63,744 nucleotides of DNA, taken from NCBI GenBank assembly GCA_003553905.1, contig PWEA01000035.1, positions 1 through 63,744 on the forward strand, in the 5' to 3' direction. The notes beneath the pieces were generated by a model. That model was not told where the DNA came from and searched no databases. It was given only the letters and a program-made list of their open reading frames with translations. The position numbers were made by a program, and so were the translations under genes. Numbering within the stretch: the stretch's first letter is position 1; each line of letters starts with the position of its first letter. Shown in pieces: positions 19,235 through 63,744 of the stretch. Source of the stretch: Candidatus Aenigmatarchaeota archaeon. Lineage in GTDB: Archaea > Aenigmatarchaeota > Aenigmatarchaeia > PWEA01.

Positions 19235-19409
19235 CTCAGTCTGGCAGAGCACTGGGCTTTTAACTATTTGCAAACGGAGTTTCGCAAAACTGAAACTCTG
19301 TTCCATAAATGAGGTTAAAAGCTCCGACGTAGACCGGTTAATATCAGTATCAAGGTCACGGATGAAGAAAGAAACCCAGTAGTCGCGGGTTCAAATCCCG
19401 TCGAGCCCA
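19225..19409 (+). tRNA. tRNA-Lys(UUU), 185 nt, with a 111-nt anticodon-loop intron
   Basis: The acceptor stem is GGGCTCG/CGAGCCC. The anticodon arm is CTGGG-CUUUUA|intron 19263-19373|A-CCCAG, and the T arm is GCGGG-TTCAAAT-CCCGT. No CCA is encoded. Confidence 0.85.
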
Positions 19410-27160: not shown

Positions 27161-27183
27161 ACTCGAATAAAATATCCTCCTAT

Positions 27184-27278
27184 GGGCCCGTAGCTCAGTC
27201 TGGCAGAGCACTAGGCTCTTATGGTCTGTAAAGGTCTGAGAAACCTAGGAGTCGCGGGTTCAAATCCCGTCGGGCCCA
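27184..27278 (+). tRNA. tRNA-Lys(CUU), 95 nt, with a 21-nt anticodon-loop intron
   Basis: The acceptor stem is GGGCCCG/CGGGCCC. The anticodon arm is CTAGG-CUCUUA|intron 27222-27242|A-CCTAG. The D and T arms are identical to those of tRNA-Lys(UUU). Confidence 0.88.
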
Positions 27279-27291
27279 TGACCAGACGTAA

Positions 27292-36694: not shown

Positions 36695-36750
36695 ACTACC
36701 TACAACAATCTTTTACTCAGGTATTTATAAACTTTACCCTAATAACTCCG

Positions 36751-37632: not shown

Positions 37633-37641
37633 CCTATACCC

Positions 37642-38598: not shown

Positions 38599-38638
38599 TG
38601 AGTTTTATTGTAATATAAATGTTTGGGGTTTCTTTACA

Positions 38639-40408: not shown

Positions 40409-40411
40409 CTT

Positions 40412-47579: not shown

Positions 47580-48605
47580 TTGAAAATTCTCCATAGAGAC
47601 AAGAAAGATGGTGTGCTTAAGCTTAAACTGGAGAATCCCAACGATATATGGGAACTAGAGAATGTACTGAAGGAAGGTGATTTTATAGGCGCGAAGACTC
47701 TCCGAAGGAAGATGATCCAAAGAAAGGATGGCCAGGAAAAGGGTGAAAAGAGGCCAGTATACTTGACGATAGAACTTGAAAAAATAAAGTTCCACGAACA
47801 CACGGGGAACCTACGTCTTACAGGACCAATCGTAGGCGGGCCTGATGATGTAGACATGGACAGCTATCATACTATAAAGGCGGAGCCGGGCAAGGTTCTT
47901 TCGGTTACAAAAAAGGACGGATGGAAACAATGGGAACTGGAAACCATAAAAAGAGCCTACAGAAAGCCTCCAAAGGTTCTCGTTTGTGTACTTGACAGAA
48001 ACAGCGCAACAATAGCAAAGGTGGAAAGTAGTGTTGAAATCATATCGAAAATAGATTCGGGAATATCAGGAAAACAGTACGAAGCGGAGTACAAAGACAG
48101 ATACATTGGAGATATACTTTCCACAATGAAGAGGAAGGCAGATGATTATGAAAAAATAATAATTGCAGGTCCTGGTTTCATGAAGGAAGAGCTCATGTCC
48201 AGAATAGAGGATGGGGATCTGGAAGATAAGGTGGTCAAAGACAGTATTTCCCAAACAGGTGAAACAGGAATACAGGAAGTCATAAAAAGAGGTACCGTAG
48301 AAAGGATTGCAAGGAATTCAAGGATCTCGGAGGAGACAGGTAAGATAGAAGAGGTTTTTGAGGAACTTTCGAAAAACACGGGCAAGGTAGCATATGGTAA
48401 GGACGAGGTGAAAAGGGCAGTGGAACTGGGAGCAGTAAAAAGGGCAGTGGTTTCTAAAAAATTCATAAAGAGCAATCAGGAGCTAATAGAAAAAATCGAG
48501 GAAAGGGGAGGAGAGGTAACAATATGTTCAGAAAGACACGAATCAGGTGAAAAGCTCGGTGGCATTGGTGGCATAGCAGCGATATTAAGATATAAAATAG
48601 ACTAG
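47580..48605 (+). CDS. pelA: Pelota (aDom34) ribosome-rescue factor
   Basis: The N-terminus is MKILHRDKKDGVLKLKLENPNDIWELENVL, followed by central and eRF1-like C-terminal domains. The start is TTG. Confidence 0.9.
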   Translation: MKILHRDKKDGVLKLKLENPNDIWELENVLKEGDFIGAKTLRRKMIQRKDGQEKGEKRPVYLTIELEKIKFHEHTGNLRLTGPIVGGPDDVDMDSYHTIKAEPGKVLSVTKKDGWKQWELETIKRAYRKPPKVLVCVLDRNSATIAKVESSVEIISKIDSGISGKQYEAEYKDRYIGDILSTMKRKADDYEKIIIAGPGFMKEELMSRIEDGDLEDKVVKDSISQTGETGIQEVIKRGTVERIARNSRISEETGKIEEVFEELSKNTGKVAYGKDEVKRAVELGAVKRAVVSKKFIKSNQELIEKIEERGGEVTICSERHESGEKLGGIGGIAAILRYKID

Positions 48606-51600
48606 AAATAGATATAAGGCTCTCCGTTCTTCAGTCTCACCACACCTTCAATAGTACCCGTGCCCCTGTGATCACCGCTTGATGTAACACCATTGACTGT
48701 TCCTGTGCCGTCTGAAATCTTGTACTTGACAACACCGTTCATCTCTTTAACCGGACGGACCCTTCCGGAAACAGTTACTCTTCTGTTTGCAAATCTATTC
48801 GGATTCTTTTTTATTGTCCGTATCGGAGCTTTACCGTTCATCAAAGAAGATTTTTTGCTTTTGTTCCTGCTCCTGTTGGTACTGTCTGTTTTATTGTCAA
48901 AGCTGTATGGGCTTTTACTCTTCTTCCCTCCGATGAAAAGCCAGGCAAGGGAGATTAAAATAGGTATCGCTATTATTACAGCAAGGATCCACCACAGTGG
49001 TGTAAACATCCTGTCATCCTCTTTTTCCAGGGTGAAATCTACGCCGTACGTTTCACCAGACATCACAAACTGTGTTTTTTCCATCACGGAATGGCCATCG
49101 ACATCATCAACAACTATCCAATATTCATAGTCCGGTTCAACCGAATGGAACCTGTAATATCCATCGGTTATCCTTACCGATTCGACCGGCTCCTCTGTAA
49201 AGTCATCCGACCTGTAAAGATCGACTGTACCCTCGTCAACAGGACTACCCATGTGGTCGTAGACGTTCCCCTCTACAGTTCCCATAACTTCTCTATCAAC
49301 TACTCTGTCTTCCTTCATACCGGATACAGAGAAATGGGAGAAGTCAAAAACAGAGGCTTTGTATCTATTGAAGTTGTCCACTCCTTCGATTTCGGTGGTC
49401 CGTAGCTCTTCCCATCTATCCATCTCTCTCCACAGGCCTATATCCTCTTCATCTTCTATCCTTCCTCTGTCTAGCTCAAAGAAGAAGGTCACGTATTCGA
49501 CATCATCCTTGATGTTTGTGTCCACATCCCATCTTTCCTTCTCATCAAGCTCGTGGCCCTCCTTTGATGGATACGTATCAAAGGGACCCTCTAAATCGTC
49601 TATTCCAATCCATCCGTCTGAAATACTGTTTTTTGCTTTTATCTCTATCTTATACAGTGCGATGGACGAATCGTCTATCTCTATTGTTCTTGTATCGCCA
49701 TCGTCGATACGGATCTCTTCAATGCGTACAGTTTCGTCTGCCTCATCACCGTCTATGACTATATATTTTCCATCATCATCATCGCTTGGACCAGCATATC
49801 CACCCCCGCCTCCACCACCAGTACCTGTATCATCCTCTTCCTCTGCTGTTGTAAATTCCCATTGCTCAGAGGTCGTAGTTGCCACTCCGTCGCTGACCTC
49901 AACGTACCATCCATAGGTCTCGTCATGATCAAGTCCCGTCCATTCGATACCGGCTCTTTCTCCGGACCCAACGTTGACGTCTTCCGCAATAATATCATCC
50001 GTTTCTTTGTCGTAAAACACAACATCTAGGGTTTCATCATCGTGATTGTTCTCTACTGTGACTGAAAGTCCCGGAGATGTTGAAACTCCAGTTGCACCGT
50101 CCTCCGGTGAAGGATCAGAATAACCTGGCGGTATCCTTGGCATTTCTATAGCTGCGGAACTTTCAAGACCCGTTATCTCATAACTATCGCCGTTGACTTC
50201 ACAACCAATACCGTCCACTGGACCTTCGCCACATGTTATGAGATGCTCGGCATCGCCACTACAGTCATCGGTAATTTCACCTATGTCATCTATCTCGGCA
50301 TCCTTAACACAGAGAGAAGAGCTGCTATCAAATATCCACTCGTTGCGGTCCATGTACAAGGTCTTGTTTTCGTTATCCAGACCACCGTCCTCTAAATTAA
50401 CACCGGAGACTCTAACCCAGTTCCTTGGATCATCGTTGTAGTCCTTTTCCCCTGTATAAACTTCGATTCTATCCCCATAGTTGTCAGATGACTGATCGAC
50501 ATTGATAACCTGGAACTGGTGATCAAGCGTAAGATTCCAGTTGAACTCCACAATCGTGTCAGATCCATCACCTATTTCTATTGGAACTTTTCCTTCTTCT
50601 GCATTCTCTTCAGCCTCATCCAGGTCGGTAAAGGAATCTACAGTAATGTTAGGTACATCAAGATTTCCTCCTAGCCATGTGCTGTCTCCTATTATCCTCA
50701 GGCTTTCGTTGTAACTTTCGCTTATAGGAAGACCATCGTTCTCCGGATCTAAAATCCTGTTCTGTATAAATACCGGTGTATTCTTGTCCAGAGTTAAATT
50801 TCTGAAATTAAGTCCCTCGACCATAAGTTCTACTAAACCATCGGGTTTGCTGAAGGTCTCATTCAAATCTATAGGATTCGAATAATCGATGTGCGGAACG
50901 CCATTTATATCCACAAACTCTAACTCATCGCCTGCTTTGTTTAGTATGTGAACGGGATAAAACCTTGTTATCTCACCCTTAACTTCATCGACGCTACCTA
51001 TGGTAATGTTACCCTTGATTGAAGGACTGCCGTGTTCATCGGAAGCCACAAGTACACCAATCTCCGAAGAATCTCCGTAGGACATCAGTTCAGCAGAACC
51101 TCTCAAGTCCAATAGCTCAACATAAGATTCATTTAGATCAACATTACCCGAAGTTCTTAATCTTCCACGGACTTCAGAATCCGTGCTGTTGATATAATTC
51201 GCATATCTTCCGTCCAGCTCGTCTACCAGAGAACCCACCATATCCACAGTAGAATCACTGCCCATGGTAAGGTTTATTTCATTGATAGAAGTGCTTATTA
51301 AATCAAGAGTGCCGCTGTCTGTATCAAACACTCCATCCACACTGCTACCCTGGCCGAGGTCGATATAAGAATCCTCGTTTTCACCAACGTGGATAATAGC
51401 TCCGTCGATGATGTATGAATTCTCTATAGTACCCTGGCCCTTTATGAATTCAACAGTTTTCACAACAGAGTTGACAACATCAACAGTCGTTCCGTTTATA
51501 ATCAGATTTTCAACTGTATTAGGACTGTCTTCGATTCTGAACTCTGAGTTATCCTCAACCACCACATCGTCGAATGAAGAGTTCCAGGCAGTTACAGAAC

Positions 51601-54600
51601 TCTCGTCCTGTATGTAAACTGTCTCAGTGAAGCTACTGTCTTTGATATATCCTGTACTCTGATCAGTAAAGTATACAGGCATATCCAAATCGAGGCCTGT
51701 CATATTTATTGTGGTGTCACCGAGGACCTTTATCTCATCCAAGTCTTCAATCAACTCATTGTTCGGGGCTCCACATATCGCCGTCTCTTCCTGATCAATC
51801 TCCCACGTACCTGATTCAGGTGGATTACAGTAGTCATCCGTGACGGTCAAGGTAAACTCGTTGGTTGGTTGCTCTACACCATAGGTATCATTGGCAAAGA
51901 ATGTGATGTTTCTGGCTCCACTCCAGTGGTCATCTGGTATGAATGTGACCCGGGGTTCTTCGTAATACTCAAAGAGTGTTATATCCTTCCATTCTGAAAG
52001 TGAGCTGACGTTATGTGCAAGGTCACCGGCCTGTGGATTCTGCTCGAGAACTACCTCCATTATATCTGCATCCTCTTCAGTTGTATACGTGTATTCCAAC
52101 TCGCTCCAGTTCTCCGTGGCATCTACACTATATTTCTGGGATCCAACTATATTGTCGGAACTATCGTATGTTCTGAACATAACACCGTAGTCAAACTCGG
52201 CTGGATCTGTGTTGTTTGCTCTATGACTTAGTCCTAACTCATACTCTGTACTACCGTCAACCGTAAAGTTCTGGGAAAGTGTTATGTTTTCTGAGACACC
52301 TGAATCAACATATACCTCGGCGTTGTCCTTGTTTCTATCAAACACAACCGAACTATTAACGTCTTCTGTTATATTCCACACAGAAAGTTCTTTGAAACGT
52401 CCATCCACTAGACTTACGTCTATATTTTCTGGATCCGTATGTCTGTAGGTTGTAGAGTCGACTGTATTTACAAAATGTTCGGCCAGATGCACTGCTTCTT
52501 CGTTTTTAGTATTCTCTATCCATTCCTGGTCTTCTATTGGATTACTGCTGTTGAACCATGAGTGCCTGTTGACAAAAAACCTTGTACTGTTTAAAGCAAT
52601 ATTTCCAACTGAATCATATGCAGCGTACGTTACGGTATACTCACCGTCGGAAAGTTCTGAAATATTTACAAAGGCCTCCCAGCTTTCCGTATCTCCGTAC
52701 CCTTCGGCCGTTATATTCTTATTCAAAGACGGGAAGTGAGTAGATCCGTTAGAGACTCCCATCCCTGCATACACAAAGTCTTCTATATCAGTGGTTATGT
52801 TGAAACTGTCCTGGAAGTAACTACCGTTAACATGTCCTTCTGTATCTACTGTAATATTAGGTGGTATCTTATCGAGCTCGAAGGTCCTTGTTTTAGTCGA
52901 GGTGTGTCCGTATGCATCTTCTGCTTCCACAGTAAAGTTATACTCTCCTGAATCAATGTCTTCCGTATCCCAGTCGTATGTATAGTTACCTGAATGCTCG
53001 TCTCCAATCGTCATTTCCAAACTTCCGCTTTCAACAACCTCCTCATTACTATCGGTTATATTGAAAGCTTGTGTATCCACTCCTCCGGGATAGTCTGTTA
53101 TATTAACACTGAATCTATCATTTGGTCCGAACTTACCCTGTCTTTCGCTGTAGTCGAGTTCTTCTGGATGATAGATCTTTATTGTGGGTGCGCTGTGGTC
53201 AACTACAAGGTCTACCTCCATGTTTTTATCCGGCGAATCGTGCTCATAATACGGACCTCTGCAAGCAATGTAGTATGTGTAGATACTCTCATCTAGATCC
53301 GGAATCCTACAGGTTTGGTTGTACCCACTGTCACCGGTAGCATTACACTTGCCCCCTGCCTCCACGTTGGTTTCGTCATATTCCTCTTCAAAATCCTCCT
53401 TCATATTTGCAAATGTGGTGTCGTAATCTCTAGAATAATAACACGTGATTTCCCTATTCCCTTCTACAGTTATATTGGTATAACCATCATCAATGTCGTC
53501 AAGCCATCCGTCCTCTGTATAGGTATCGTTCTCTACGGACACTACCTCGGTCTCGAGCTTAGTTTGATTGTAGTATGTTATAGGTTGGCTTGAAGTTACA
53601 TTGCTTTGGTAACCATGTTTGTCTATGGCCTTTACGCTGAAATAATACTCTTCTTGATCTTCTAGCTCAAACGATTCTTCAACATATGTGTCAAGCCCAC
53701 TACTGACCCAGCCATCTGTGAGATTATCCCACCCTTCTTCTCCGTAGATATCAACACCAGCGGCATATTCATACCTTTCAATACCCACGGAAGAGTAGCT
53801 ATCCGTCCAGTTTGCCCACAGCACAGGATCCGTGTGCACTGAACCGGGCACAGTGATATTAACAGATGTAGGTGGTTCGGAAGGCTCATCTTGTTCGACA
53901 AACTTCATCGATCCGCTTACTCCAATCTCACTCCAACGGTCCCATTTGTATCTCTTGTATCTGACCTCGAATACGTAACTGGTGTGGTTTATCAGATCTA
54001 GCTTATCTGTTGTCAAATTGGTATCAGTTCTTTCTTGTAGATTAGCTCCAATCCAGTCGGTTATATAGTCACTACTTTCTTCTTCCTTGACCCTGTACTC
54101 TAGGCTCCATATATCGTCGTACTCCACACTCCAGTTAAGGAAAAGGTTTCTGTCATAAACTACGCTACCTTCGCGATACACTTCTGGAGGCTCCAACCTA
54201 CCTGTCCAGACTTCAAAACCTGTACGACTAGAAGTACCTTTGTTTCCTATGATGTCCTCAGCAGAGAAAGTTATATTGTACTCCCCTTCTTCCATGTATA
54301 CATCTACTTCGCAGCTGTACTTTTCACCAGAAACACACTCAACGGTTTCATTAACGTTCTGCAGATAATCAAACTGGCTACTGTTGTATGAATAATACTC
54401 GCTATTACCCGCGGAGTCCGTAATATTTACAAGGATACTGTTAGGATCTGTTCCTATGTCATCGCTTACAGTGAAATTCCATTTGTTTTGTTTATCACTT
54501 GAACCGTCCGGAACCTGCGATATATCTATATAAGGACCGTAGGCATCATAGTATACATCTCCTTCGAAGATCACGCCGTTACCTGCCGTGTTGTTTCCTC

Positions 54601-57600
54601 TGATCCTTACCGTATTATCTCCCTCATGAAGACCCAGAGAGAGGTTGAACCAGTTGTTCGGGTAACTTTCGTTGTATGCAAAAAGTCTATCTCCGATTTC
54701 AACATCCCTAACGAGACTTTCATTCAAGTGAAGCTTGTACATGTCACCATCTTCATGCATGACGTGTTCTCTTCCTGTGATGTTGTAATACTTGAAGTAA
54801 TCCAGGCTCTGTCCCTGTATCTTGATGTAATTTGATCTGTTGAAGCCCTCCGAGGAGTCTACACTCACCTTAACGTGGTCTTTGCCTGAACTAACAAATG
54901 TCTCGGATATAGACTCACCAGCTTTCGAAGTATCCTGAAGTTCGGATTGGAATGCCTCTTTTACGTTGTTGTCAGGGTCCAGTGCCTGAGCATGTACGGT
55001 GTCAACCTCTTCTTCCTCTATGTAACCTATAATGTCAATGGTATCATTACTAACGACTTCGGGGAAGTCCCATATTATTGGTTTGGTTGGGATGGATCTT
55101 ATCTCTGCTTTGTCCGAATACCTGAACTCTTGGTCCATGAGACCAAACTCATCATATACTCTTACAGCACATTGAACCTCGTCATCGGTTGTAAACTCTC
55201 CCGAAAAGGTCCTTCCATCACTCTTGAATTCATCACTAACATACCATCTGAACTCTGTGGAAGATTCATCCTCCTCTACCTCAAACTCTTCGTTTATTGG
55301 ATCGAAGTTGTAAACACACTCAAGCTCAGATCCCTCCGGAGCAGGATCCGGTGTAACGTTAACATCGGTAGCCGTTGGAGGAAGATTCATATAGAACGTT
55401 CCATCAACAACATTGGAACATCCTCCTGTGTCATCACAAACCTGCATCTCGTAGCTATTTACTTCATCGAACGTTCCGTCCTCGGTCGAGTAGGAACACG
55501 AATATTCTCCGTAGTCTTCTTGCTCCGAAACTTCGGAAACACAGTAGGTGTTTCCATAACAGTCTTCGCCGGAGGACCTATAGTTAAGATTTATATCGGG
55601 ATTGTAGACATTATCGCTCGAAGCATTCCTGGCGATATGTTCTCCTGAACTGTTTGCTCTGACCGAAGCCCACCTATCCATCCCTTCATCACAATCACCG
55701 TCTCCTTCCTCATCAACACATATCTCAAATCCTAGAACATCATCCGCCATTGCCTGTGCATTGCTGAAACCGATGTGCACATACTCGTCGTTTTTCAAGG
55801 AAATGCCCTTTTCGACGGCGACGGGTGATTCGTCGTCGGTATCGTTTGCTTCATCAAGATTGTAGGCGGATATAGTGTAAATGTGATCAGTTCTTTCGCC
55901 TGATTCGTTTACTAAGTCGGTTCCATTGTAGAACTCCTCCAGTCTGATGGACACCGTCTCAACTCTTTCTCCTGTTCTGCTTGTGTAGAACCAGGCCGGA
56001 TCGCCACCAAAAACAAGACTTGTATCAGACTCTTCCATTCCCTGTTCTTCCGTAGAGGAAACCTCCTCACATATGAAAACATCGAACTCATCTGAGTCCT
56101 CATCCAACCACTCAAGACCGAAAGTTATGTTTCCTCCCTTGTGGACAGGAGAATCCTCTGTAGCATCGTTGAAGTAATCTACTATTGTGGGTGGTGATAT
56201 TCCTTCAACGACAACAGATGGTGAAACTTCGAATCCCGTCGAGACTCCCACTTCGTTTGTCGCATTGACAGAACATCTTATTTCATCGTCCCTCGTAAGC
56301 CAACTCTCGTCCAAAGTCTGATCGGTTTCGTCGTCTATCTCGACCCATTCATTTATGCCATCTCTGTTTCTCTCCCACTTGAACTCGGTAAGTGATTTGT
56401 CTTCTGAAAAGCCATCCGGGTCTGTGAAATTGTATTTACATGTTAGCTCGGATGAAGTTTCTGGCTCCTCGGGCTCTATACTTACATTTGTTATAGAAGG
56501 TCCCGTGTGTTCCACATAGAAATGATGGCTTCTTACCGTAGATGTGTGACCCTCTGAATCATACACTCTCATATCATAAGAGTGATTGCCCTGACCGAGA
56601 TCCTCAACAACATAGGAACAGTTTATCGGATTTTCTGATGTTGAATCGACTTCGCAGTACTTTTCACCAACACAATCATACCCATCCTTCTGATAACTTA
56701 CCATGACTTCGGGGTCATAGTAATTAACACTATCTCCGTTTTCTTCTATAGCTAGATTGCTACCTCCTGTCTCATTGGCTCTAACGTAAACTTCTTCACC
56801 TTCTTCACCCGAAACTCTAAAGGCTATGTGTTTATCCGACTCGGAGCTCACGGAAACCTTGAAGGTGTTCCACTCGCCTATCGTAAATGCTAGGTTGCTT
56901 ATCTTTTCTATAAACTCTCCATCGGTATCGCCCTGTTCATCGACCTCATATAATTCTATAGAATAACTGAAGTCAGTGTGATCCTGGCCACTTTCTGAAT
57001 CGAAGGGCTTCACCGAAAGTTCATCCGAAACGAGGCCCTTTTCACCTGTGTAGAACCAGGCTTCGGTTCCATTACCGAATGTTATGTTATCCTGGCCACC
57101 TTCATATTGGTTCTCGTCGTTTCCTATCCTATCACATATTCTTAGGTCGATCTCTTCGTCCTCCTCGTGCATCCATTCCACACCGAAATGTATTACATCA
57201 TCTACACTAACTGCGTCTACCTCTCTCTCGGCTGTGTTCCAATAGTCTCTTATCCCGGGTCTGTGGACTGTATCGATATAAACAGGCGAAGACTCTCTGA
57301 ACTGTGTATCGCTTTTAGATTCGGTTCTGGTCGCCCAGTTGTTTTCGTCTATATCACTGACCTTGACTTCACACATTATTCCATCGCTTCCCTCGAAGTT
57401 ACTGCTGTCTAAGGTGCTGGTGTTCTCACCCTGTATTTCAATCCACTGTCCCGTGCCGTCTATATCCCTGTACCATCTGAACTCGGCAGCAGATTCGTTT
57501 TCAGGATCGTCGTCAGGATCTACAAAGGTATATTCACAGGTTAGATCTGTATCTTCATCGGGTTCATCCGGTGTTATACTTACATCCTCTGCCCTTGGTG

Positions 57601-60600
57601 GAGCATTTTCAATAACCGTGTGGTTCTCTGTCTCTATCGGATCGCCTTTCTCGACACCGTCGTCCGGAGTCATCTCAAAGAGATATTTGCTTGCCTTTCT
57701 GTAGTTGTTTACTCTGTCACCGTAACTGACTATACATTCGTGCGTAGCGTTTCCCTGTGGATCCTCCCACTGATCTCCGAAGTAAGTACATCCCACTGTT
57801 CCTGTATAGGTGTTGACCTCGCCTTCGTATGTTGTCTCCTGTATGCTCCAATGGACTTCTATGTCACCCGAGCCGGCGTCTTCGTCTTCTACGAAACCTA
57901 TGAATTTAGCTTCATCTCTGTCTTCTATGGTCTGGTTCTCAGGTTCCACCGTTATATTAACCATCAGAGGTACCGCATTAGGCGAGGCACAGTTCTTCGC
58001 CGTCGGATAGGACGTTTCACCGTCTTCCATGACCGCCCTTATCTGGTAGCAGTAGGTCTCTGTATTGGACAGATTGTTGTCTTCGCCCATGTTCCATCCA
58101 TCGTCCACCGCCTTGTATTCGCCCTGGTAATCTGTAGTTATATCATCATCCAAACTGAGGTTCTTGACGTTCACCTTGTCGTGGTCACCTTCTTCCCATC
58201 GATATACAGAGAAGTTTCCAAGCTCGTCCTCGTCGCCTATCCAGTCCCATGTCAAGCTGAGGTTTCCGCCCCGGTTTCCGGGTATGTTCGTTACGTTGAG
58301 GTTGGACGGATCTATCTCTCTGTCGACTATTTCCACGGTCGCATTTCTCCAAACCTCATCCCTCTTGGGGTTCTGCCAGGCTTCCCAAGTATCGTCCACG
58401 TCCTTCACACGAACGCCGACCTTTATGAAATCATCACGGACAAATACTTCGTCAAGGGTTGTTTCGTTATCGGATTCGTTTAGGTGTATCCAATCCTCTT
58501 CCTCCGCAGTGTCGTTGTACTTCCACCATCTGACCATCCTCGCCGACTCGTTCTCTTCGTCCATCTCATTGACGTCCACGAAGTCGTACGTTAGTTCGAG
58601 CGTCGATGATGCATTAGGATGTTCGGGGATTATTTCCACGTTCTCGGCCGTGGGTGCTGTGTTGTTCACGTACGCCTGTTGGAACTCGGACCACTGACCG
58701 TATACCAAACCATTATACGGTCTAAACTCTGCGGTGTATTTATCTCCTTTGAGCGTTTGATCGCTGCTTATGGTTTTTATACACTCAAAATCTGCAGTTA
58801 TGTTAGGATCAAGCTGTGAGTTGTTTATAGCCGTACATCCCACTGTTCCTTCCAATACCTCAGGATCACTCTTATACTCTTCATTGTGATAAGACAATCT
58901 TTCTATGTAATATTCCGCCGTCATGTCTGAAAAGCTTGAGGAGCTGTCGTTCACGTATATGTAGAATCTTATATCGTCCTCTGTTTCTGGGTACTCCGGT
59001 TTTCTGTGTGCACTGACTATCTCCGGTTCTACTCTTGTGCTGAACGAGTACTCATCTTCAACAGAGCCCCCGAACGAATCGGTGACGTTTAAAGTCCAGT
59101 TGTAATCTGTGCTGGTTTCAAGTTCAAGACCAGAGGTTTCAAACTCTTCGGTTCCGTCGGACTCCATAGTATATACAAAGCTATCTACCTCATCACCACC
59201 TTCTTCATCTACGGTGATCTCGATATCTGTAGGCGTTCCATATGATTCCACTGTTACCGAAATATTTGTATACGATGGTACATTGGCCTCTCCGTCCTCC
59301 GGTGAGATATCAACAATCACAGGCTCGTCCGGTTTTTCTGTAGTAAAGGTACGAGGTCCCTCAATGGTACCAAGACCCTCGTCATCGATTGCCTGTACCC
59401 TCCAGCTATAGTCTCTGTCGTATTCAAGATCAAAGCCCTCGTTATCAGAAGCCAAAGTCTCCAAAGAGTCTGTGACGAATGTTACATCATCGTACTCGAC
59501 CTGCTCTTCGGTATAGACCACAGTCGAGCCTATAATAAACCTAACTTCGTATGGTTTATATGAAACGTTTTCGACCCGTGCCTCAAGTACGTCTTGGAAT
59601 GAAACAGTTGCACCGTCATTGGGCTCCTGTAGCTCTATATCAGGTGCATCTTCCTCGCGAACCGTGAAGGATGCACTATCACTGTCACTTCCACCAAAGT
59701 AGTCCTCCGCAAAAACCGCCCAATCATATGTTTCATCGAACTCGAGTTTTTCTCCTGTCTGATCCTCAAGATCCACGCAGAGATTATCTCTATCGTAGGA
59801 TACTTCTGTACTATATATTATATCATCTTCAAAGTGGAAGTCTACACTGACTCTTCTGTCCTCGTCGCTGGTAGGAAGGGTTTCGGACGAAACATTAATA
59901 CAAAGGTTTGGTGTTCTGCTGACCTCATCCTGCCCATCACTTGGATATTTGATATTGATATCCGGGTCGTCTGGTTCAGCTGTGATAAACTCAAACTCCT
60001 CCGCTGTCTCTCCTCCGACGTCGTTAACGGCCTCCACAGTCCATGTGTACTTCGTTCCAAACTCAAGCTCCCCGCCGAGCTGTTCCTCAAGATCAACAAC
60101 AACCCTTTCGTCATCGTTCTCGTCCACGCTACCGTGATCAACCCATGCTTCTTCCTCTCCGTCATCCAAGTAAACTACGTATTCGATTGGATATGTACTA
60201 TTTCCATCCCCCGCTGTTGTTAGATTGAAGGTTAGATTTGTATCTACGTCTACGTTATGGTGTCCATGCGAAGGATCTGGATCATAGACCTGTGGAAGTG
60301 GCGGATCAACTGTCGTAAAGGTGTATTCAGCCTCGGTTTGACCTCCGACCTGGTTCCAGGCCACGACATCCCATGTATACTCCGTCCCGTATTCTAACTC
60401 GGGTTCTCCAAACGCGTCTTCAAACTCACCCTCACCGACAATAAGCTCTTCTTCAACGTATTCCCCCTCTTCGGTTTCGCCATCCTTTACTCTAACCCCA
60501 TCTAAATAAATCTCATAGTTTATAGGTCCTATGTCGTCGGAGGCGTCACCGGAGACATTGACTGTAAGGTTTTCTGTGACATCCACTCCGATGGATCCAT

Positions 60601-63600
60601 CGGACGGAGTTTCACTATCTATCATCGGAACAGGTGGTTCCATGGTACTGAAGGTATATTCCTTCACCTCCATAACACCGATATCGTTCACTGCAGTCAC
60701 TGTCCATGTATATTCGCTATCATACTCTAAGTCGTATGCTGCAGTAACCTTGCTGTCATCATCTTCGTACAGGGTACTACCATTTATATTATTGCCATTG
60801 AGGTATATCGTCCAGTTTATTGGATATTCGATACCCGATATCCGGGCCGAAAGATCAGTATCTGGATCTATGCTCTCGGAATTATCCAACGGAACCGGGT
60901 TCGATATCTCAGGGACCGGAACATCCGCCGTCGTGAACTCCATCATGTCCGAAATTACTACCTGTCCGGTTTCGTCCTCGACCTCTACCTGCCACTCAAA
61001 GGTTTTCTCGTATTCACCATATCCCATATCCTCGAGGGAGTTTGTATGTACTAAACCATCACTGTCCACGGTATAGCCATCTTCCAAAACGTTCTCGCCT
61101 TCCAGGTATATCCTAACCGAGGTATCCTCCGTTTCCGTTTCCACGAACAATGAAAGATTTGCGGAAAGCGGTACACTGTCGTCGCCGTCCTGTGGATAGA
61201 ACTGGCTCATCTCGGGTGGATCGGGGTATTCAGCAGTAAACGAATACGTACTGCTACTGTAGTCATTGAATCCATCATCAACTGTTACGTTCCACTCGTA
61301 TTCCTCTGCGTATTCAAGGGCAAGGCTTCCTGTTTCCACCCTACCATCGCTGCTCACGGTAGTCGAATAAACCTCGCCATCATGCTGCCCCCCATAAAGT
61401 TCGAAGGACACATCCAAGGGATAGTAGTCCGACTCGAGTTCCGCGGAAAGAGATGTCCCGATAGAAACATCGTTCTCGTTGTCTGCAGGTTCCGGGTTGA
61501 TTATATTTGGCTCGGGTGGTTCGGTCGTCGTAAAGTCCTCGCTCTTCACGCTCTCCAGTCCTTCGCTGTCCACGACCTTGACATGCCACTGGTAGTCGGT
61601 TCCGTACTCCACATCGAAGTCCGAAATATCTTGCAGGGACGGGCTCTTGAAAGTTCCATTGACCTCTCTGTCGTTAAGCGTGTGGACCTCATCGCCATCG
61701 ATGAAAAACATTACGTCGAAGGGCTGGTGATAAACGCTTATATTGGCCGAAAGCTTTTCGTCAAATCCAACATCCGTTCCATTCGGACTTAGGTCGGTTA
61801 TATTCCCGGATAGCTCGTCCCTGACGGTAAACCAGCTCTGGTTACTGCTTTTCTGTCCCATTACATCCTTGGCAGAAACCGACCAGTCGTAGGTCTCTCC
61901 AAACTCCAGCGGATCAAAACCATGGTCCTCTATATTCCTACAGACAGTCTGGTTATAACTGATGTCAAACCCATCCACCTGGCTGTCAGCCAAAAAGATC
62001 TCGACTTCTACTGTGTTGTCCTCGCTACCAGACATTGTCTCGGAAGATACGTTGGCACATAGGTTTGGCGTACTGCTTACACCCTCATCCCCTACAGGGT
62101 ATGTTAGATCAACTTCTGGTTTATTTACATCTTCACCCACAGTGAACGTGAACACCTCGGTTTTATCTTCATTCAGATCGTTTGATGCCTCGACAGTCCA
62201 AGTATAGGTCACCCCGACGAGAAGTTCATTCTCTATCTCATCGCCATCATCGCCTATACTAGCTGAAAAGGTGGTTCCGCTGCCGTCATGATCTTCTTTT
62301 TTACCAACAAAGACCTGGTCGCTGAAACGGTCGTCTTCCTGGCTCTCCAGGTACATGTACATATCGTTTGCTCTCTCGACCTCCACGCTCAAAGTAGGTG
62401 TAGTGTTCACAAAACCGGACTTATCGGGTGGATTGGGATTGCTTATCCTCGGTGAGTTACTATACCGACATCCCACAAGGTAACCATCGGCATCACCACT
62501 GTAAACGGCTTCATCAGCCACAGAGTCTATTGCCTGTATATCCGCACCATGATGATCATGATGCCAAATCTTGGACCCGTACTTGGCATCTATAGCACTT
62601 AAATATCCGTCATCATCGATAAAAAGCTCTCCATATTCCCCTCCGTCTGTCACAGACAAGGCATACTCCCCTTCCACATCGGGATCGAATCCCAGAACAT
62701 CCTCTCCTGTCTTGGCATCAACTGCCTTAACCCCCTCATGTCTGGAAACACTATAAAGCACAGGCCCACCGTTTTCCCCGTGCCAACCCTGCTCTTCCAA
62801 ATCTATTGACCACACTACACCGTCATGAATGTCCTCTCTTTTCCACTGAAGAGAACCGTCACCTGCGTCCACAGCAACTAAATCGCCTGCATTACCGCCA
62901 CTGTAGACCATTCCATCATAATAAAAGACAGAAGCTACGTTTCCGTGGTGCTCGTGGTCCCATTCTATGAGATCTTCTTCCTCTAAGACATCACCCTCAT
63001 ACTCATTAACAAGTTTGCTGTGGTCAACTGCAATCACCCTCTTCGAAAGGCCAGCATCACCACTGTAGACCATGTTCCCATCCGAAGTGACCGACATGAC
63101 ATCAGAATCATGTAGACTGTGCTGCCATTCTATCTCGTGGTTCTCAATGTCGTAGGCTAAAACCGTGCCGTCCTGCGAAGCACTATAGACCGTGCCGCCG
63201 GACACATGAACTGAACGTACGCTACCTTCATGGAAACCGTGACGCCACTGCACATATCCATCCAAATTCTCCGCTACGACTTTACCTCCGTCGTTGCCAG
63301 TATATACTAGGTCACCGTGTTTGTAGACAGAATTAATTTCATCTAAGTGTTCTCGTTTCCAACAGTCATCATTCTCATCTTCGGGTTCTTCGGGCTCCTC
63401 CATGAAGTACGCGTCAACGTCCTTTCCAACATGATCCACGTTTATGGTTATCTGATTGTTCCTGCCGTCGTAATCATCCTTATCCTCAAAATCTATATCT
63501 CCGCCCCAGTGCTCGAAGGTGTAGCCACTGCCGGGACCGGGGTCGGCCTCCAGAGTAACCTCAGTATCACTGAAGAAAGGTCTTTCGAAAGTATCACTAA

Positions 63601-63724
63601 CTATTTCCTCCCCGCCGTCCCACTCCACAGTCACATTTGAATCTTCTGATCCCTTCACTTCTACAGAAAGTCTGCGTGCCGGACATCCTAAAAGTCTGTC
63701 ATCCACACCACCACTGAAAATCAT
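48602..63724 (-). CDS. Giant modular surface protein (at least 5,040 aa), C-terminal TM anchor; N-terminus possibly beyond the window
   Basis: The 15.1-kb ORF is uninterrupted, and the frame stays open from the first Met (63724) to the window end (63744). Domains read by eye are a beta-propeller, many Ig/Fn3-like repeats, a CBM-like domain, a beta-helix, a PGF-pre-PGF-like domain, a CarboxypepD_reg-like domain, a TM helix (48926-49006) and a 107-aa basic tail. Confidence 0.9.
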   Translation of the reverse strand: MIFSGGVDDRLLGCPARRLSVEVKGSEDSNVTVEWDGGEEIVSDTFERPFFSDTEVTLEADPGPGSGYTFEHWGGDIDFEDKDDYDGRNNQITINVDHVGKDVDAYFMEEPEEPEDENDDCWKREHLDEINSVYKHGDLVYTGNDGGKVVAENLDGYVQWRHGFHEGSVRSVHVSGGTVYSASQDGTVLAYDIENHEIEWQHSLHDSDVMSVTSDGNMVYSGDAGLSKRVIAVDHSKLVNEYEGDVLEEEDLIEWDHEHHGNVASVFYYDGMVYSGGNAGDLVAVDAGDGSLQWKREDIHDGVVWSIDLEEQGWHGENGGPVLYSVSRHEGVKAVDAKTGEDVLGFDPDVEGEYALSVTDGGEYGELFIDDDGYLSAIDAKYGSKIWHHDHHGADIQAIDSVADEAVYSGDADGYLVGCRYSNSPRISNPNPPDKSGFVNTTPTLSVEVERANDMYMYLESQEDDRFSDQVFVGKKEDHDGSGTTFSASIGDDGDEIENELLVGVTYTWTVEASNDLNEDKTEVFTFTVGEDVNKPEVDLTYPVGDEGVSSTPNLCANVSSETMSGSEDNTVEVEIFLADSQVDGFDISYNQTVCRNIEDHGFDPLEFGETYDWSVSAKDVMGQKSSNQSWFTVRDELSGNITDLSPNGTDVGFDEKLSANISVYHQPFDVMFFIDGDEVHTLNDREVNGTFKSPSLQDISDFDVEYGTDYQWHVKVVDSEGLESVKSEDFTTTEPPEPNIINPEPADNENDVSIGTSLSAELESDYYPLDVSFELYGGQHDGEVYSTTVSSDGRVETGSLALEYAEEYEWNVTVDDGFNDYSSSTYSFTAEYPDPPEMSQFYPQDGDDSVPLSANLSLFVETETEDTSVRIYLEGENVLEDGYTVDSDGLVHTNSLEDMGYGEYEKTFEWQVEVEDETGQVVISDMMEFTTADVPVPEISNPVPLDNSESIDPDTDLSARISGIEYPINWTIYLNGNNINGSTLYEDDDSKVTAAYDLEYDSEYTWTVTAVNDIGVMEVKEYTFSTMEPPVPMIDSETPSDGSIGVDVTENLTVNVSGDASDDIGPINYEIYLDGVRVKDGETEEGEYVEEELIVGEGEFEDAFGEPELEYGTEYTWDVVAWNQVGGQTEAEYTFTTVDPPLPQVYDPDPSHGHHNVDVDTNLTFNLTTAGDGNSTYPIEYVVYLDDGEEEAWVDHGSVDENDDERVVVDLEEQLGGELEFGTKYTWTVEAVNDVGGETAEEFEFITAEPDDPDINIKYPSDGQDEVSRTPNLCINVSSETLPTSDEDRRVSVDFHFEDDIIYSTEVSYDRDNLCVDLEDQTGEKLEFDETYDWAVFAEDYFGGSDSDSASFTVREEDAPDIELQEPNDGATVSFQDVLEARVENVSYKPYEVRFIIGSTVVYTEEQVEYDDVTFVTDSLETLASDNEGFDLEYDRDYSWRVQAIDDEGLGTIEGPRTFTTEKPDEPVIVDISPEDGEANVPSYTNISVTVESYGTPTDIEITVDEEGGDEVDSFVYTMESDGTEEFETSGLELETSTDYNWTLNVTDSFGGSVEDEYSFSTRVEPEIVSAHRKPEYPETEDDIRFYIYVNDSSSSFSDMTAEYYIERLSYHNEEYKSDPEVLEGTVGCTAINNSQLDPNITADFECIKTISSDQTLKGDKYTAEFRPYNGLVYGQWSEFQQAYVNNTAPTAENVEIIPEHPNASSTLELTYDFVDVNEMDEENESARMVRWWKYNDTAEEEDWIHLNESDNETTLDEVFVRDDFIKVGVRVKDVDDTWEAWQNPKRDEVWRNATVEIVDREIDPSNLNVTNIPGNRGGNLSLTWDWIGDEDELGNFSVYRWEEGDHDKVNVKNLSLDDDITTDYQGEYKAVDDGWNMGEDNNLSNTETYCYQIRAVMEDGETSYPTAKNCASPNAVPLMVNITVEPENQTIEDRDEAKFIGFVEDEDAGSGDIEVHWSIQETTYEGEVNTYTGTVGCTYFGDQWEDPQGNATHECIVSYGDRVNNYRKASKYLFEMTPDDGVEKGDPIETENHTVIENAPPRAEDVSITPDEPDEDTDLTCEYTFVDPDDDPENESAAEFRWYRDIDGTGQWIEIQGENTSTLDSSNFEGSDGIMCEVKVSDIDENNWATRTESKSDTQFRESSPVYIDTVHRPGIRDYWNTAEREVDAVSVDDVIHFGVEWMHEEDEEIDLRICDRIGNDENQYEGGQDNITFGNGTEAWFYTGEKGLVSDELSVKPFDSESGQDHTDFSYSIELYEVDEQGDTDGEFIEKISNLAFTIGEWNTFKVSVSSESDKHIAFRVSGEEGEEVYVRANETGGSNLAIEENGDSVNYYDPEVMVSYQKDGYDCVGEKYCEVDSTSENPINCSYVVEDLGQGNHSYDMRVYDSEGHTSTVRSHHFYVEHTGPSITNVSIEPEEPETSSELTCKYNFTDPDGFSEDKSLTEFKWERNRDGINEWVEIDDETDQTLDESWLTRDDEIRCSVNATNEVGVSTGFEVSPSVVVEGISPPTIVDYFNDATEDSPVHKGGNITFGLEWLDEDSDEFDVFICEEVSSTEEQGMEESDTSLVFGGDPAWFYTSRTGERVETVSIRLEEFYNGTDLVNESGERTDHIYTISAYNLDEANDTDDESPVAVEKGISLKNDEYVHIGFSNAQAMADDVLGFEICVDEEGDGDCDEGMDRWASVRANSSGEHIARNASSDNVYNPDINLNYRSSGEDCYGNTYCVSEVSEQEDYGEYSCSYSTEDGTFDEVNSYEMQVCDDTGGCSNVVDGTFYMNLPPTATDVNVTPDPAPEGSELECVYNFDPINEEFEVEEDESSTEFRWYVSDEFKSDGRTFSGEFTTDDEVQCAVRVYDEFGLMDQEFRYSDKAEIRSIPTKPIIWDFPEVVSNDTIDIIGYIEEEEVDTVHAQALDPDNNVKEAFQSELQDTSKAGESISETFVSSGKDHVKVSVDSSEGFNRSNYIKIQGQSLDYFKYYNITGREHVMHEDGDMYKLHLNESLVRDVEIGDRLFAYNESYPNNWFNLSLGLHEGDNTVRIRGNNTAGNGVIFEGDVYYDAYGPYIDISQVPDGSSDKQNKWNFTVSDDIGTDPNSILVNITDSAGNSEYYSYNSSQFDYLQNVNETVECVSGEKYSCEVDVYMEEGEYNITFSAEDIIGNKGTSSRTGFEVWTGRLEPPEVYREGSVVYDRNLFLNWSVEYDDIWSLEYRVKEEESSDYITDWIGANLQERTDTNLTTDKLDLINHTSYVFEVRYKRYKWDRWSEIGVSGSMKFVEQDEPSEPPTSVNITVPGSVHTDPVLWANWTDSYSSVGIERYEYAAGVDIYGEEGWDNLTDGWVSSGLDTYVEESFELEDQEEYYFSVKAIDKHGYQSNVTSSQPITYYNQTKLETEVVSVENDTYTEDGWLDDIDDGYTNITVEGNREITCYYSRDYDTTFANMKEDFEEEYDETNVEAGGKCNATGDSGYNQTCRIPDLDESIYTYYIACRGPYYEHDSPDKNMEVDLVVDHSAPTIKIYHPEELDYSERQGKFGPNDRFSVNITDYPGGVDTQAFNITDSNEEVVESGSLEMTIGDEHSGNYTYDWDTEDIDSGEYNFTVEAEDAYGHTSTKTRTFELDKIPPNITVDTEGHVNGSYFQDSFNITTDIEDFVYAGMGVSNGSTHFPSLNKNITAEGYGDTESWEAFVNISELSDGEYTVTYAAYDSVGNIALNSTRFFVNRHSWFNSSNPIEDQEWIENTKNEEAVHLAEHFVNTVDSTTYRHTDPENIDVSLVDGRFKELSVWNITEDVNSSVVFDRNKDNAEVYVDSGVSENITLSQNFTVDGSTEYELGLSHRANNTDPAEFDYGVMFRTYDSSDNIVGSQKYSVDATENWSELEYTYTTEEDADIMEVVLEQNPQAGDLAHNVSSLSEWKDITLFEYYEEPRVTFIPDDHWSGARNITFFANDTYGVEQPTNEFTLTVTDDYCNPPESGTWEIDQEETAICGAPNNELIEDLDEIKVLGDTTINMTGLDLDMPVYFTDQSTGYIKDSSFTETVYIQDESSVTAWNSSFDDVVVEDNSEFRIEDSPNTVENLIINGTTVDVVNSVVKTVEFIKGQGTIENSYIIDGAIIHVGENEDSYIDLGQGSSVDGVFDTDSGTLDLISTSINEINLTMGSDSTVDMVGSLVDELDGRYANYINSTDSEVRGRLRTSGNVDLNESYVELLDLRGSAELMSYGDSSEIGVLVASDEHGSPSIKGNITIGSVDEVKGEITRFYPVHILNKAGDELEFVDINGVPHIDYSNPIDLNETFSKPDGLVELMVEGLNFRNLTLDKNTPVFIQNRILDPENDGLPISESYNESLRIIGDSTWLGGNLDVPNITVDSFTDLDEAEENAEEGKVPIEIGDGSDTIVEFNWNLTLDHQFQVINVDQSSDNYGDRIEVYTGEKDYNDDPRNWVRVSGVNLEDGGLDNENKTLYMDRNEWIFDSSSSLCVKDAEIDDIGEITDDCSGDAEHLITCGEGPVDGIGCEVNGDSYEITGLESSAAIEMPRIPPGYSDPSPEDGATGVSTSPGLSVTVENNHDDETLDVVFYDKETDDIIAEDVNVGSGERAGIEWTGLDHDETYGWYVEVSDGVATTTSEQWEFTTAEEEDDTGTGGGGGGGYAGPSDDDDGKYIVIDGDEADETVRIEEIRIDDGDTRTIEIDDSSIALYKIEIKAKNSISDGWIGIDDLEGPFDTYPSKEGHELDEKERWDVDTNIKDDVEYVTFFFELDRGRIEDEEDIGLWREMDRWEELRTTEIEGVDNFNRYKASVFDFSHFSVSGMKEDRVVDREVMGTVEGNVYDHMGSPVDEGTVDLYRSDDFTEEPVESVRITDGYYRFHSVEPDYEYWIVVDDVDGHSVMEKTQFVMSGETYGVDFTLEKEDDRMFTPLWWILAVIIAIPILISLAWLFIGGKKSKSPYSFDNKTDSTNRSRNKSKKSSLMNGKAPIRTIKKNPNRFANRRVTVSGRVRPVKEMNGVVKYKISDGTGTVNGVTSSGDHRGTGTIEGVVRLKNGEPYIYF
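55085..59017 (-). repeat. P-Q-Fn3-P-Q-R-Q-R-Q super-repeat region of the giant ORF (aa about 1570-2880)
   Basis: Four Q modules (nt about 58325-58657, 57290-57607, 56210-56497 and 55100-55387) share P..P....L.C.Y.F.D.D..E..S..(F)(R/K)W......W.EI....TLD.....D.I.C.V. Two R modules of about 270 aa share ...DY(W/F)N.A(E)...F(G).EW...(D)(E)(F/I)D..IC... Confidence 0.75.
59030..62452 (-). repeat. Array of 11 Ig/Fn3-like repeats of about 100 aa in the giant ORF (aa about 425-1565), including a duplicated three-repeat block
   Basis: Each unit recurs with P-(D/E)-P...LS(A/V)x(V/I)...(E/D)Y(G/D)x(E/D)Y(T/x)W(T/x)V...(F/Y)(T/S)F(T/S)T. The block at aa 533-833 parallels the block at aa 1250-1565 repeat for repeat. 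Confidence 0.8.
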
Positions 63725-63744
63725 CTGCCTTAGATTATCATCAA

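Follow-up and report, generated by a model that had tools for sequence, protein, structure and literature searches.

The stretch of DNA analyzed here (the window) is the entire 63,744-bp NCBI contig PWEA01000035.1 of a Candidatus Aenigmatarchaeota archaeon (assembly GCA_003553905.1), and a single minus-strand gene occupies it from position 48602 to its edge at 63744. The window covers only the C-terminal part of the encoded protein, whose length is at least 5,773 amino acids and which is probably a giant glycosylated surface fiber that is anchored in the membrane and has a role in attachment. The evidence consists of a membrane-anchored topology, a long series of modules, and an excess of N-x-S/T sequons as of a glycosylated surface fiber, all of which bear out the surface-protein architecture proposed in a preliminary description of the same sequence. 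On the present analysis, the protein can be filed as a giant immunoglobulin (Ig)-array surface protein of an episymbiotic DPANN archaeon, in a lineage from which no example had been described earlier.

An intact reading frame that continues beyond the contig

In the list of open reading frames (ORFs) of the window, the gene appears as one minus-strand ORF (48602..63724) of 5,040 codons, counted from the first Met at 63724, which is also where the residue numbering used below begins. Translation of positions 48602-63742 in this frame encounters a sole stop at 48602-48604 and none 5′ of the first Met (..DDNLRQ-MIFSGG..), such that the frame is open to the window edge. No hydrophobic segment or signal peptide follows this Met when hydrophobicity is plotted along all 5,040 residues, and gene calls of 5,170 and 5,773 amino acids on a pair of ENA contigs both run off the contig end without a start. 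These contigs are ERZ27265998:k141_534341 (83,349 bp), which extends ~2.2 kb past the end of the window, and ERZ27266011:k141_728581. Thus, the true N terminus lies outside the window, as had been suspected. A scan for exact matches to the 40 nt at the window end of the gene located the JGI contig L017, which reaches 19 nt beyond the window and contributes seven extra in-frame residues upstream (..HYAEVEV-DDNLRQM..).

The continuity of the frame was evaluated in other assemblies. Eight further copies, taken from NCBI, ENA, JGI, and Logan assemblies that derive from different samples, keep the frame open over the 522-3,333 C-terminal residues that the comparison spans. Their identity is 99.8% or higher, and the differences amount to a few substitutions and one in-frame 3-aa indel. 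The reading frame is therefore intact in nine of nine copies including the window, and none of the eight independent ones carries the frameshifts or stops that might have split the gene, as is to be expected if the single giant ORF of the preliminary description is real. The window gene is free of DNA repeats, whether tandem, direct, or dispersed, at lengths of at least 30 nt, and the protein repeats share just 25-43% identity, so repeat collapse is not a concern for the part of the gene in the window. The indel is located at residues 2989-2991 (nt ~54752-54760), where two ENA assemblies differ from the window, JGI, and Logan sequences by this change and by three to five substitutions; it represents natural variation in length and leaves the frame intact.

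The place at which the contig ends has a particular structure. The last 121 nt of the window (63624-63744) are 100% identical to the end of L017 (14465-14604, its last 140 nt). Immediately downstream of this shared segment, the DNA identity between the window and L017 falls to ~50%, and elsewhere in the two genes it reaches up to 79%. This pattern looks like an assembly-graph fork at a segment common to two co-occurring variants, and a fork of this type would account for the fact that the NCBI and JGI assemblies break within ~40 nt of one place. To judge from these identities, the 5′ head of the gene could be shared, or could recently have been exchanged, between two co-occurring species.

Syntenic orthologs and a shared anchor cassette

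Homology searches with various parts of the protein yielded a small family. The C-terminal 401 residues had no match in a word-indexed search of 5.8 billion proteins, and the N-terminal 500 residues retrieved from a word-indexed search distant BamB-like proteins of the pyrroloquinoline quinone (PQQ) repeat type and nothing closer. Exhaustive HMMER searching with residues 3841-5040 gave 1,054 matches, most of them to the Ig unit alone and a few of them colinear; outside a small PWEA01-type family, these matches are Ig repeats only. Genome-contig scans with the N-terminal 450 residues and with the neighboring Pelota gene, as well as a first metagenome scan, returned nothing, and a concatenated query of two giant segments plus Pelota returned a protein termed P0023 and one weak match, with no Pelota relatives. 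Two candidates were rejected as orthologs, namely P0023, a bacterial protein of the type IX secretion system (T9SS) that shares only Q-like units (see below), and P0025 (5,366 aa), which has a bacterial context and matches via Ig repeats only.

Three syntenic orthologs remain, two of them complete (P0041 with 3,063 aa and P0026 with 4,291 aa) and one partial (L017 with at least 3,875 aa), and all three are arranged tail to tail with Pelota. P0026 belongs to the metagenome-assembled genome (MAG) NHA-7 of the sister species PWEA01 sp003554235 (PMC9765267 Table S1) and adjoins the same ~395-aa gene as its counterpart in the window. P0041 resides on a 270-kb contig of GCA_964584335.1 in the same gene arrangement, including a 4-nt overlap with Pelota. 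The search for orthologs and conserved neighbors that the preliminary description had recommended is thereby answered with three loci at which Pelota and the ~395-aa gene recur.

The window protein is colinear from residue ~1797 to its end with residues 190-4291 of P0026, at 32-39% identity, and orthologs at 31-61% identity retain the frame and the module order. The N termini of P0026 and P0041 consist of a charged N-region and a hydrophobic segment (signal or anchor) that lead directly into the S, P, Q, and R modules described below. L017 retains the B-repeat, the propeller, and two Ig units, and it is without window residues 649-1802; Ig units 3-12 are missing from L017, and the entire Ig array is missing from P0026 and P0041. 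The family, whose length varies about two-fold and whose locus position is conserved across at least four species, thus changes in length as repeat arrays and the distal head are gained or lost. Identity between the window protein and its nearest ortholog, L017, is highest in a carbohydrate-binding module (CBM)-like domain (88%); it is 67% in the cytoplasmic barrel and only 33% in the first Ig units.

The C-terminal end of the family carries an anchor cassette of defined order: a G/S/T hinge, a PGF-pre-PGF domain, a transthyretin-like domain or a mini-domain, a transmembrane (TM) helix, a K/P-rich linker, and a domain of ~75 residues. The cassette is common to the window protein, P0026, P0041, and the shorter P0155, P0167, and P0169 (471-655 aa), which lie on contigs of 3.5-7.1 kb and may be fragments of longer genes. 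In P0041, P0155, P0167, and P0169, a CGNGxCExGE..CPxDC mini-domain substitutes for the transthyretin-like domain. A distant homolog, P0068, matches window residues 3806-4520 and carries the tail domain, with the region between unaligned to the cassette.

In the window gene, on whose minus strand all features of the protein lie, the cassette begins with a Gly7 hinge and acidic linker (49760..49825, residues 4634-4655) that has a G/S/T-rich counterpart in all homologs. The PGF-pre-PGF domain (49310..49759, residues 4656-4805) is a beta-sandwich in the AlphaFold2 (AF2) model, with a predicted local distance difference test (pLDDT) score of 76-87. Its profile, TIGR04213, matches six of the six cassette homologs (best E=2e-16) and scores the window copy at E=6.4e-5 and 23 bits versus a 28-bit cutoff. 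The CarboxypepD_reg (transthyretin-like) domain (49013..49309, residues 4806-4904) matches its Pfam profile over the full length in the window copy (E=3.7e-4) and above the cutoff in the ortholog P0026, and Foldseek relates it to carboxypeptidase D/N regulatory domains at a root-mean-square deviation of ~3 Å. Hinge, PGF-pre-PGF-like domain, and CarboxypepD_reg-like domain had each been read by eye, and all three are upheld by these comparisons.

The single TM helix that had been predicted (48920..49012, residues 4905-4935) is seen both in the hydrophobicity profile and in the AF2 model, and it is the sole hydrophobic helix of the entire protein. Beyond it lies a cytoplasmic tail of 105 residues (48605..48919, residues 4936-5040), in which a Lys/Arg/Ser-rich linker precedes the conserved domain of ~75 residues. 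The tail is indeed basic (Lys plus Arg 21%, Asp plus Glu 6.7%), although it is more than the basic stretch that was first described, since it also holds this folded domain. AF2 models the domain (residues 4966-5040, nt 48605-48829) as a short helix and a five-stranded beta-barrel ending in ..Y[IL][YE]F, with pLDDT ~85-88. Matches to PF01336 (tRNA_anti-codon; E=1.9e-4, 21.8 versus 27 bits, two of seven members) and to the AIM2 HIN domain (E=0.019) are below threshold, and together with the model they hint at a barrel that resembles the oligonucleotide/oligosaccharide-binding (OB) fold. A hidden Markov model (HMM) of the tail domain built without L017 detects the tail of L017 at E=4e-22. Within the DNA examined, the tail and PGF-pre-PGF domains occur once per locus and only in genes of the giant family.

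A small ORF touches the start of the gene in both complete orthologs. This conserved frame of 69-74 codons (L012 9814-10023, plus strand; L014 9799-10023, plus strand) overlaps the giant start codon by 23 nt and carries the motif ..LMSVS.LA.RL..RRDFLAGYLEC...KLE.MEVGKA.VY.V. Read by eye, it possibly encodes a small winged-helix protein that could serve as a co-translated regulator. At the window locus, the corresponding position falls beyond the end of the contig.

Modular architecture of the ectodomain

The ectodomain is composed of roughly 45-50 modules of beta-sandwich size, and the most distal part available begins with a beta domain carrying a GYTFEHWGG motif (63380..63724, residues 1-115). 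This domain resembles the InlB B-repeat and Listeria-Bacteroides repeat below threshold (Pfam Flg_new_2, E=1.4e-3, 19 bits versus a cutoff of 23.6), and it is 64% identical in L017. A beta-propeller of the PQQ_2/BamB type follows (62453..63379, residues ~116-424), which had been anticipated at this place and is supported by PF13360 well above the gathering threshold (E=1.3e-19, 71.2 versus 27.6 bits) and by a partial match to TIGR03300. The PF13360 match identifies the fold family and does not extend to PQQ binding or catalysis. Next is an array of Big_10-type Ig-like domains of ~105 residues each (59045..62452, residues ~425-1560), with Pfam matches to Big_10 (E=5.5e-28), Big_5, and fn3. The tandem Ig repeats of the preliminary description are thus present, but an HMM made from the array itself counts 12 units and not 11.

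The array gives way to a Cys-containing super-repeat (55079..59047, residues 1560-2882) that was also noted at the outset and is now read as P1-Q1-S-P2-Q2-R1-Q3-R2-Q4. Its modules are P (~130 residues), Q (~115 residues), S (~120 residues, Fn3-like, that is, like fibronectin type III), and R (~265 residues), with conserved Cys pairs, and the super-repeat has no Pfam, NCBIfam, or PDB match. Comparison of the R module with the CBM region by hhalign revealed no relation. The Q module can be summarized as ..P.tP..ddL.c.Y.F.D.D.D.E....W.kng....gd.w.c.V.p.D.. (~95-115 residues) and is without a Pfam model; its occurrence also in the bacterial T9SS protein P0023 makes it a widespread adhesin repeat. 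Further beta-sandwich modules follow (52415..55078, residues 2883-3770), identified by Pfam Big_13 and Big_3_3 matches and by reading of the sequence. They include a Big_13-like Ig domain (~3076-3172), two Fn3-like domains (~3171-3370), a Cys-rich segment, and a Big_13/Big_3_3 Ig domain (~3530-3730).

A CBM-like beta-jelly roll of the CBM4/9/16/22 type (51950..52414, residues ~3771-3925) had been recognized early and is corroborated in its fold by structure prediction. The sequence match to CBM_4_9 is below threshold (E=1.8e-3, 19.1 versus 25.9 bits), and the AF2 model has pLDDT 72-91. At probability 1.0 and target-normalized TM-scores (TMt) of 0.5-0.63, Foldseek pairs this model with CBM16, CBM4, CBM61, and CBM22, with a module that binds hyaluronan, and with the sugar-binding domain of Fbs1. 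The nearest structures are phage and bacterial CenC-type carbohydrate binders.

The repetitive all-beta region that follows (50975..51949, residues ~3926-4250) is modeled by AF2 with partial confidence, including a confident portion with long strands of 10-17 residues (residues ~3969-4109). It had been described as like a right-handed beta-helix, which was not confirmed. The region has no Pfam (including Beta_helix) or PDB sequence match, and no parallel beta-helix is among the top 50 PDB or BFVD matches from Foldseek, for which the multi-domain query was dominated by the CBM. Module X (50141..50974, residues 4251-4528) is conserved in all homologs, and the last Ig-like domain, of Big_10 type (49826..50140, residues 4529-4633), connects it to the anchor cassette. 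In orthologous copies of module X (P0041 ~2490-2520; P0155, P0167, and P0068) there are four conserved Cys as well as a thrombospondin-type-3-like acidic motif, LDPDGDxNPxxNDTDDDNDGIxD, which suggests Ca2+ binding in those proteins. The acidic motif is degenerate in the window copy (RILDPENDGLPISESYNESL, residues ~4323-4342). PDB sequence searches with the super-repeat, residues 2850-4540, the C terminus, and an R-module profile gave nothing meaningful, and matches to beta-trefoil and aerolysin structures were rejected as short chance matches.

Acidity and glycosylation sequons

The giant protein is strongly acidic and rich in sequons, as the preliminary description had stated. Asp plus Glu amount to 22.6% of its residues versus 5.9% for Lys plus Arg, and its pI is ~4.05. 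Cytoplasmic proteins of the window are mildly acidic (Asp plus Glu 16-18%, Lys plus Arg 12-17%), and secreted or lipoprotein-like ones are strongly so (~20-22% and 6-9%), a distinction that fits the "intermediate" halophily reported for PWEA01. Because other secreted proteins share it, the strong acidity of the giant represents the extracellular style of the organism and does not set this protein apart.

The sequon excess, on the other hand, is specific to the giant protein. It has 120 N-x-S/T sequons versus 45.6 ± 6.0 in shuffled sequences (2.6-fold, z = 12; the maximum in 2,000 shuffles was 69), and no such excess was observed in the other window proteins examined. The sequons are most dense in residues 2883-3770, and there are none in the propeller or in the ~375 membrane-proximal residues of the ectodomain.

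Source organism and genomic setting

The source organism can be placed through a conspecific MAG, NHA-8 (GCA_022257665.1), in which the Pelota neighbor of the giant gene occurs identically. NHA-8 is listed as a "DPANN group archaeon" of GTDB p__PWEA01, species PWEA01 sp003553905, and is conspecific with T1Sed10_94 from soda-lake sediment, with a genome of 0.61-0.70 Mb and 41.5% GC (PMC9765267 Table S1). PWEA01 now corresponds to the Haloaenigmatarchaeaceae within the Aenigmatarchaeota, a group that is independently halophilic, has intermediate proteome acidity and genomes of 0.6-1.5 Mb, is without cultures, and has been described as a likely symbiont. Thus, the DPANN origin proposed in the preliminary description stands, but the comparison with nanohaloarchaea does not carry over to lineage, which is Aenigmatarchaeota and not Nanohaloarchaeota (PMC9765267 Table S1). 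The literature found on PWEA01 or Haloaenigmatarchaeaceae nowhere mentions giant proteins. At 17.3 kb or more, the gene takes up at least 2.5% of a genome of 0.61-0.70 Mb.

The remainder of the window is core archaeal chromosome, with a ribosomal-protein cluster, SecY, split RpoB, RpoA′/A″, CTP synthase, ThiI, 5S rRNA, and intron-bearing tRNAs. The Pelota (eRF1-like) gene (47580..48605, plus strand) converges on the giant gene with a 4-nt overlap and serves as the synteny anchor of the family. Every orthologous locus also has, beside Pelota, a gene for an acidic protein with an N-terminal anchor, which has 398 residues in the window (46327..47523, minus strand) and 393-398 residues across loci. 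This protein carries a conserved SSGWR.WAPTVY motif and is without a Pfam match, and a functional link between it and the giant gene is possible. No Pfam ATPase match was found among the downstream neighbors (Pelota, the 398-aa anchored protein, and hypothetical proteins), and the orthologous loci are alike in this respect.

Other genes of the window also appear to be related to the envelope. A run of envelope genes without Pfam matches (35798-43474, minus strand) comprises three consecutive acidic proteins of ~300 residues, each with a signal peptide and a ..SGC.. lipobox-like motif, a 589-aa protein with four hydrophobic helices, and a 1,020-aa protein with a weak CarboxypepD_reg match and five C-terminal helices. 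A 490-aa protein with NPCBM_assoc and DUF11 matches and two hydrophobic segments (17202-18674, plus strand) sits between the ribosomal cluster and the 5S rRNA and may likewise be an envelope protein. Two tRNA genes are probably intron-containing archaeal tRNAs: one at 27183-27279 (plus strand), which ARAGORN reports as "tRNA-Stop (tta)" and Rfam as a 95-nt tRNA and which is probably no true suppressor, and one at 19225-19409 (plus strand), a 185-nt tRNA by Rfam that ARAGORN missed.

Proposed function and alternative explanations

If the protein is a surface fiber with a role in attachment, it would be exported by the Sec system and remain tethered by its C-terminal helix. The sequon-free cassette would lie beside the membrane, possibly under the surface layer (S-layer), and the Gly hinge would provide flexibility. 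From there, a glycosylated stalk of Ig, Fn3, and P-Q-R modules would project the CBM-like lectin, the glycan-free propeller, and the unseen N-terminal head outward. An Ig-size domain measures ~4 nm, so an extended length of ~150-200 nm is plausible for 45-50 modules. The binding modules might then attach to a host cell or another surface by way of its glycans or proteins, and the conserved cytoplasmic barrel would tie the fiber to an intracellular partner. Between species, reach and specificity could be tuned by repeat arrays that grow or shrink and possibly also by swapping of the distal head.

Several points weigh against this explanation. We infer host contact and adhesion from architecture, and "adhesin" is a class assignment, given that CBM-like and propeller domains are also found in nutrient-capture and envelope proteins. 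The PWEA01 clade is without a known host. Furthermore, ~40% of the protein (the P, Q, and R modules, the beta-rich region, and module X) is without a fold assignment, and both AF2 models were built on 6-sequence alignments, with mean pLDDT 61-67. Finally, the unseen N terminus of at least 733 residues could carry an enzymatic or toxin head, which would call for a different view of the protein.

A structural role in the envelope is an unlikely explanation. According to this alternative, the protein would be an S-layer-associated spacer, a sheath, or a halomucin-like glycocalyx that protects or shapes the cell in brine and has no part in specific attachment. Archaeal envelope glycoproteins typically contain PGF-pre-PGF domains, the giant combines high acidity with extreme glycosylation potential, Foldseek matches include the S-layer stalk protein SlaB, and the gene is a single conserved copy at a housekeeping locus. 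However, the ~two-fold length variation in sister species and the divergence of the distal Ig units (33% identity) are a better fit for a protein of contact or specificity than for a lattice protein. Moreover, the lectin-like and propeller modules are positioned toward the distal end, and known lattice proteins of the S-layer do not have this type of anchor, with one TM helix and a domain in the cytoplasm.

The CBM-like and propeller modules might instead bind environmental polymers, making the protein a scaffold for capturing polysaccharides or nutrients and not a means to reach a host cell, which we regard as rather improbable. The CBM4/16/22-type fold is the best-conserved module and its closest structures are the phage and bacterial CenC-type binders mentioned above, but there is no glycoside hydrolase or other catalytic domain detected in the 5,040 residues, and no transporter or hydrolase genes are adjacent.

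There is a similarly slim chance that the protein goes beyond a passive adhesin and is a transmembrane coupling device of a new type, specific to halophilic Aenigmatarchaeota, with a head that is exchanged by recombination. The OB-like barrel would then bind nucleic acid or a cytoplasmic partner and link a contact made ~150-200 nm away to an intracellular response or to uptake, and the distal head would be a cassette exchanged between co-occurring species that sets host range. What suggests an exchanged head is the fork, where 121-140 nt match perfectly between genes whose DNA is otherwise ~50% (just downstream of the fork) to 79% identical.

It is very improbable that the protein is a member of the SPEARE/nanohaloarchaeal giant family and works within a conduit into the host that resembles type IV secretion. 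The ectodomain logic is shared (N-terminal propeller, Ig/Fn3 arrays, and C-terminal TM helix), as is an origin in DPANN archaea of hypersaline habitats. However, the cytoplasmic part of 105 residues holds a small barrel and no VirB4/TraG or type III-restriction helicase domain, Pfam detects neither laminin-G in the protein nor an ATPase gene among the downstream neighbors, and the C-terminal region, which in SPEARE proteins is the conserved one, finds only its own small family by exhaustive HMMER and no relatives by word-indexed search.

An assembly artifact or a decaying pseudogene that stays open by chance is scarcely conceivable, because although every short-read assembly breaks inside the gene and the last 121 nt of the window are common to a divergent contig, nine copies agree over up to 3,333 residues without a stop, internal DNA repeats are absent, orthologs keep frame and module order, and a 15-kb open frame by chance is impossible at 44% GC.

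A giant surface fiber of this type would be expected in a DPANN symbiont, and the added value of the present case is in its synteny, its length plasticity, its distinct anchor with a barrel, and the fork. Nothing has been described on how Haloaenigmatarchaeaceae contact other cells, and the gene is an obvious candidate for the contact apparatus given its share of the genome, its conserved position, and its variation in length. The gene also offers a handle for finding the host. In addition, Pfam has no models for the anchor cassette or for the Q, P, and R modules, which constitute annotation gaps.

Comparison with known systems

The preliminary description could not assign the domain combination to a described family, and this assessment holds. 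There is no full-length match to a named protein, and Pfam and NCBIfam cover scattered domains only. The bacterial protein P0023 (JGI 3300034152, 2,484 aa; L011 8851-16305) has the Q module in common with the giant, but it consists of ~20 Q-like units only, ends in a Por/T9SS C-terminal sorting domain, and has PorV as a neighbor. Among bacterial giant adhesins, SiiE, RTX adhesins of the MpIBP/LapA type, and a 7,651-aa adhesin of Mobiluncus similarly use tens of tandem Ig domains as an extender, with ligand-binding modules interspersed or distal and with repeat numbers that differ between relatives. The archaeal protein, in contrast, has no RTX repeats, type I secretion system (T1SS) signal, sortase motif, or autotransporter barrel, and what holds it in the membrane is a TM helix near the C terminus, followed by a cytoplasmic domain.

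Glycoproteins of the PGF-CTERM type, which are processed by archaeosortase A, are also acidic and sequon-rich and have a TIGR04213 domain just outside the membrane. Unlike these proteins, the giant has no PGF motif before the helix (..EDDRMFTPLWWILAV..) and has a 105-aa tail with a folded domain after it. Its own helix is therefore the most likely anchor, as opposed to a lipid attached after cleavage by archaeosortase.

The closest functional parallel drawn in the preliminary description was to SPEARE proteins, and this comparison, which relies on published descriptions of those proteins, stands for the ectodomain and fails for the cytoplasmic side. The definition of SPEARE proteins names three regions, a serine protease, an adhesion region (laminin-G), and a "restriction endonuclease," and the cytoplasmic part is the most conserved (PMC6642349); the cytoplasmic domain was first assigned as a type III restriction helicase (Hamm 2019) and later as a VirB4/TraG-like ATPase (La Cono 2023) (PMC6642349, PMC10266531). 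Nanohaloarchaeal giants include NAR1_1133 (5,998 aa), a protein of Ca. Nanopetramus SG9 (8,553 aa), SVXNc_0300 (9,409 aa), and BNXNv_0298 (8,880 aa) (PMC6642349, PMC10266531). SVXNc_0300 has a signal peptide, an Ig domain, two PQQ-like propellers, Ig arrays, a TM helix, and a cytoplasmic VirB4/TraG-like ATPase, and it is adjoined by an ATPase gene; such giants have been proposed to bind host cells (PMC10266531).

Like these proteins, the window protein is acidic, mostly extracytoplasmic, and several thousand residues long, it is encoded by a halophilic DPANN symbiont in which it takes up several percent of a tiny genome, and it has a PQQ-like propeller near the N terminus, long Ig/Fn3-like arrays, and a single TM helix near the C terminus, which is cytoplasmic. 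It differs at the phylum level in its lineage (Aenigmatarchaeota/PWEA01). Its cytoplasmic part comprises 105 residues with a barrel of ~75 residues and has no ATPase or helicase by Pfam or NCBIfam, and no ATPase gene is adjacent among the downstream neighbors of the window gene or at orthologous loci. No tile of the protein matches Laminin_G, in place of which there is a jelly roll of the CBM4/16 type; among homologs, Laminin_G_3 is found only in the distant P0068. No serine protease or BC-toxin-like region is present in the 5,040 residues available, with at least 733 N-terminal residues lying beyond them. Conversely, the cassette of Gly hinge, PGF-pre-PGF, and transthyretin-like domains and the P/Q/R super-repeat have not been described for SPEARE proteins. 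Overall, separate DPANN lineages possess giant proteins that have Ig arrays and distal propellers in common and differ at the cytoplasmic end, as in a convergent architecture, and this recurrence helps to separate what is essential (the fiber) from what is lineage-specific (an ATPase versus a small barrel).

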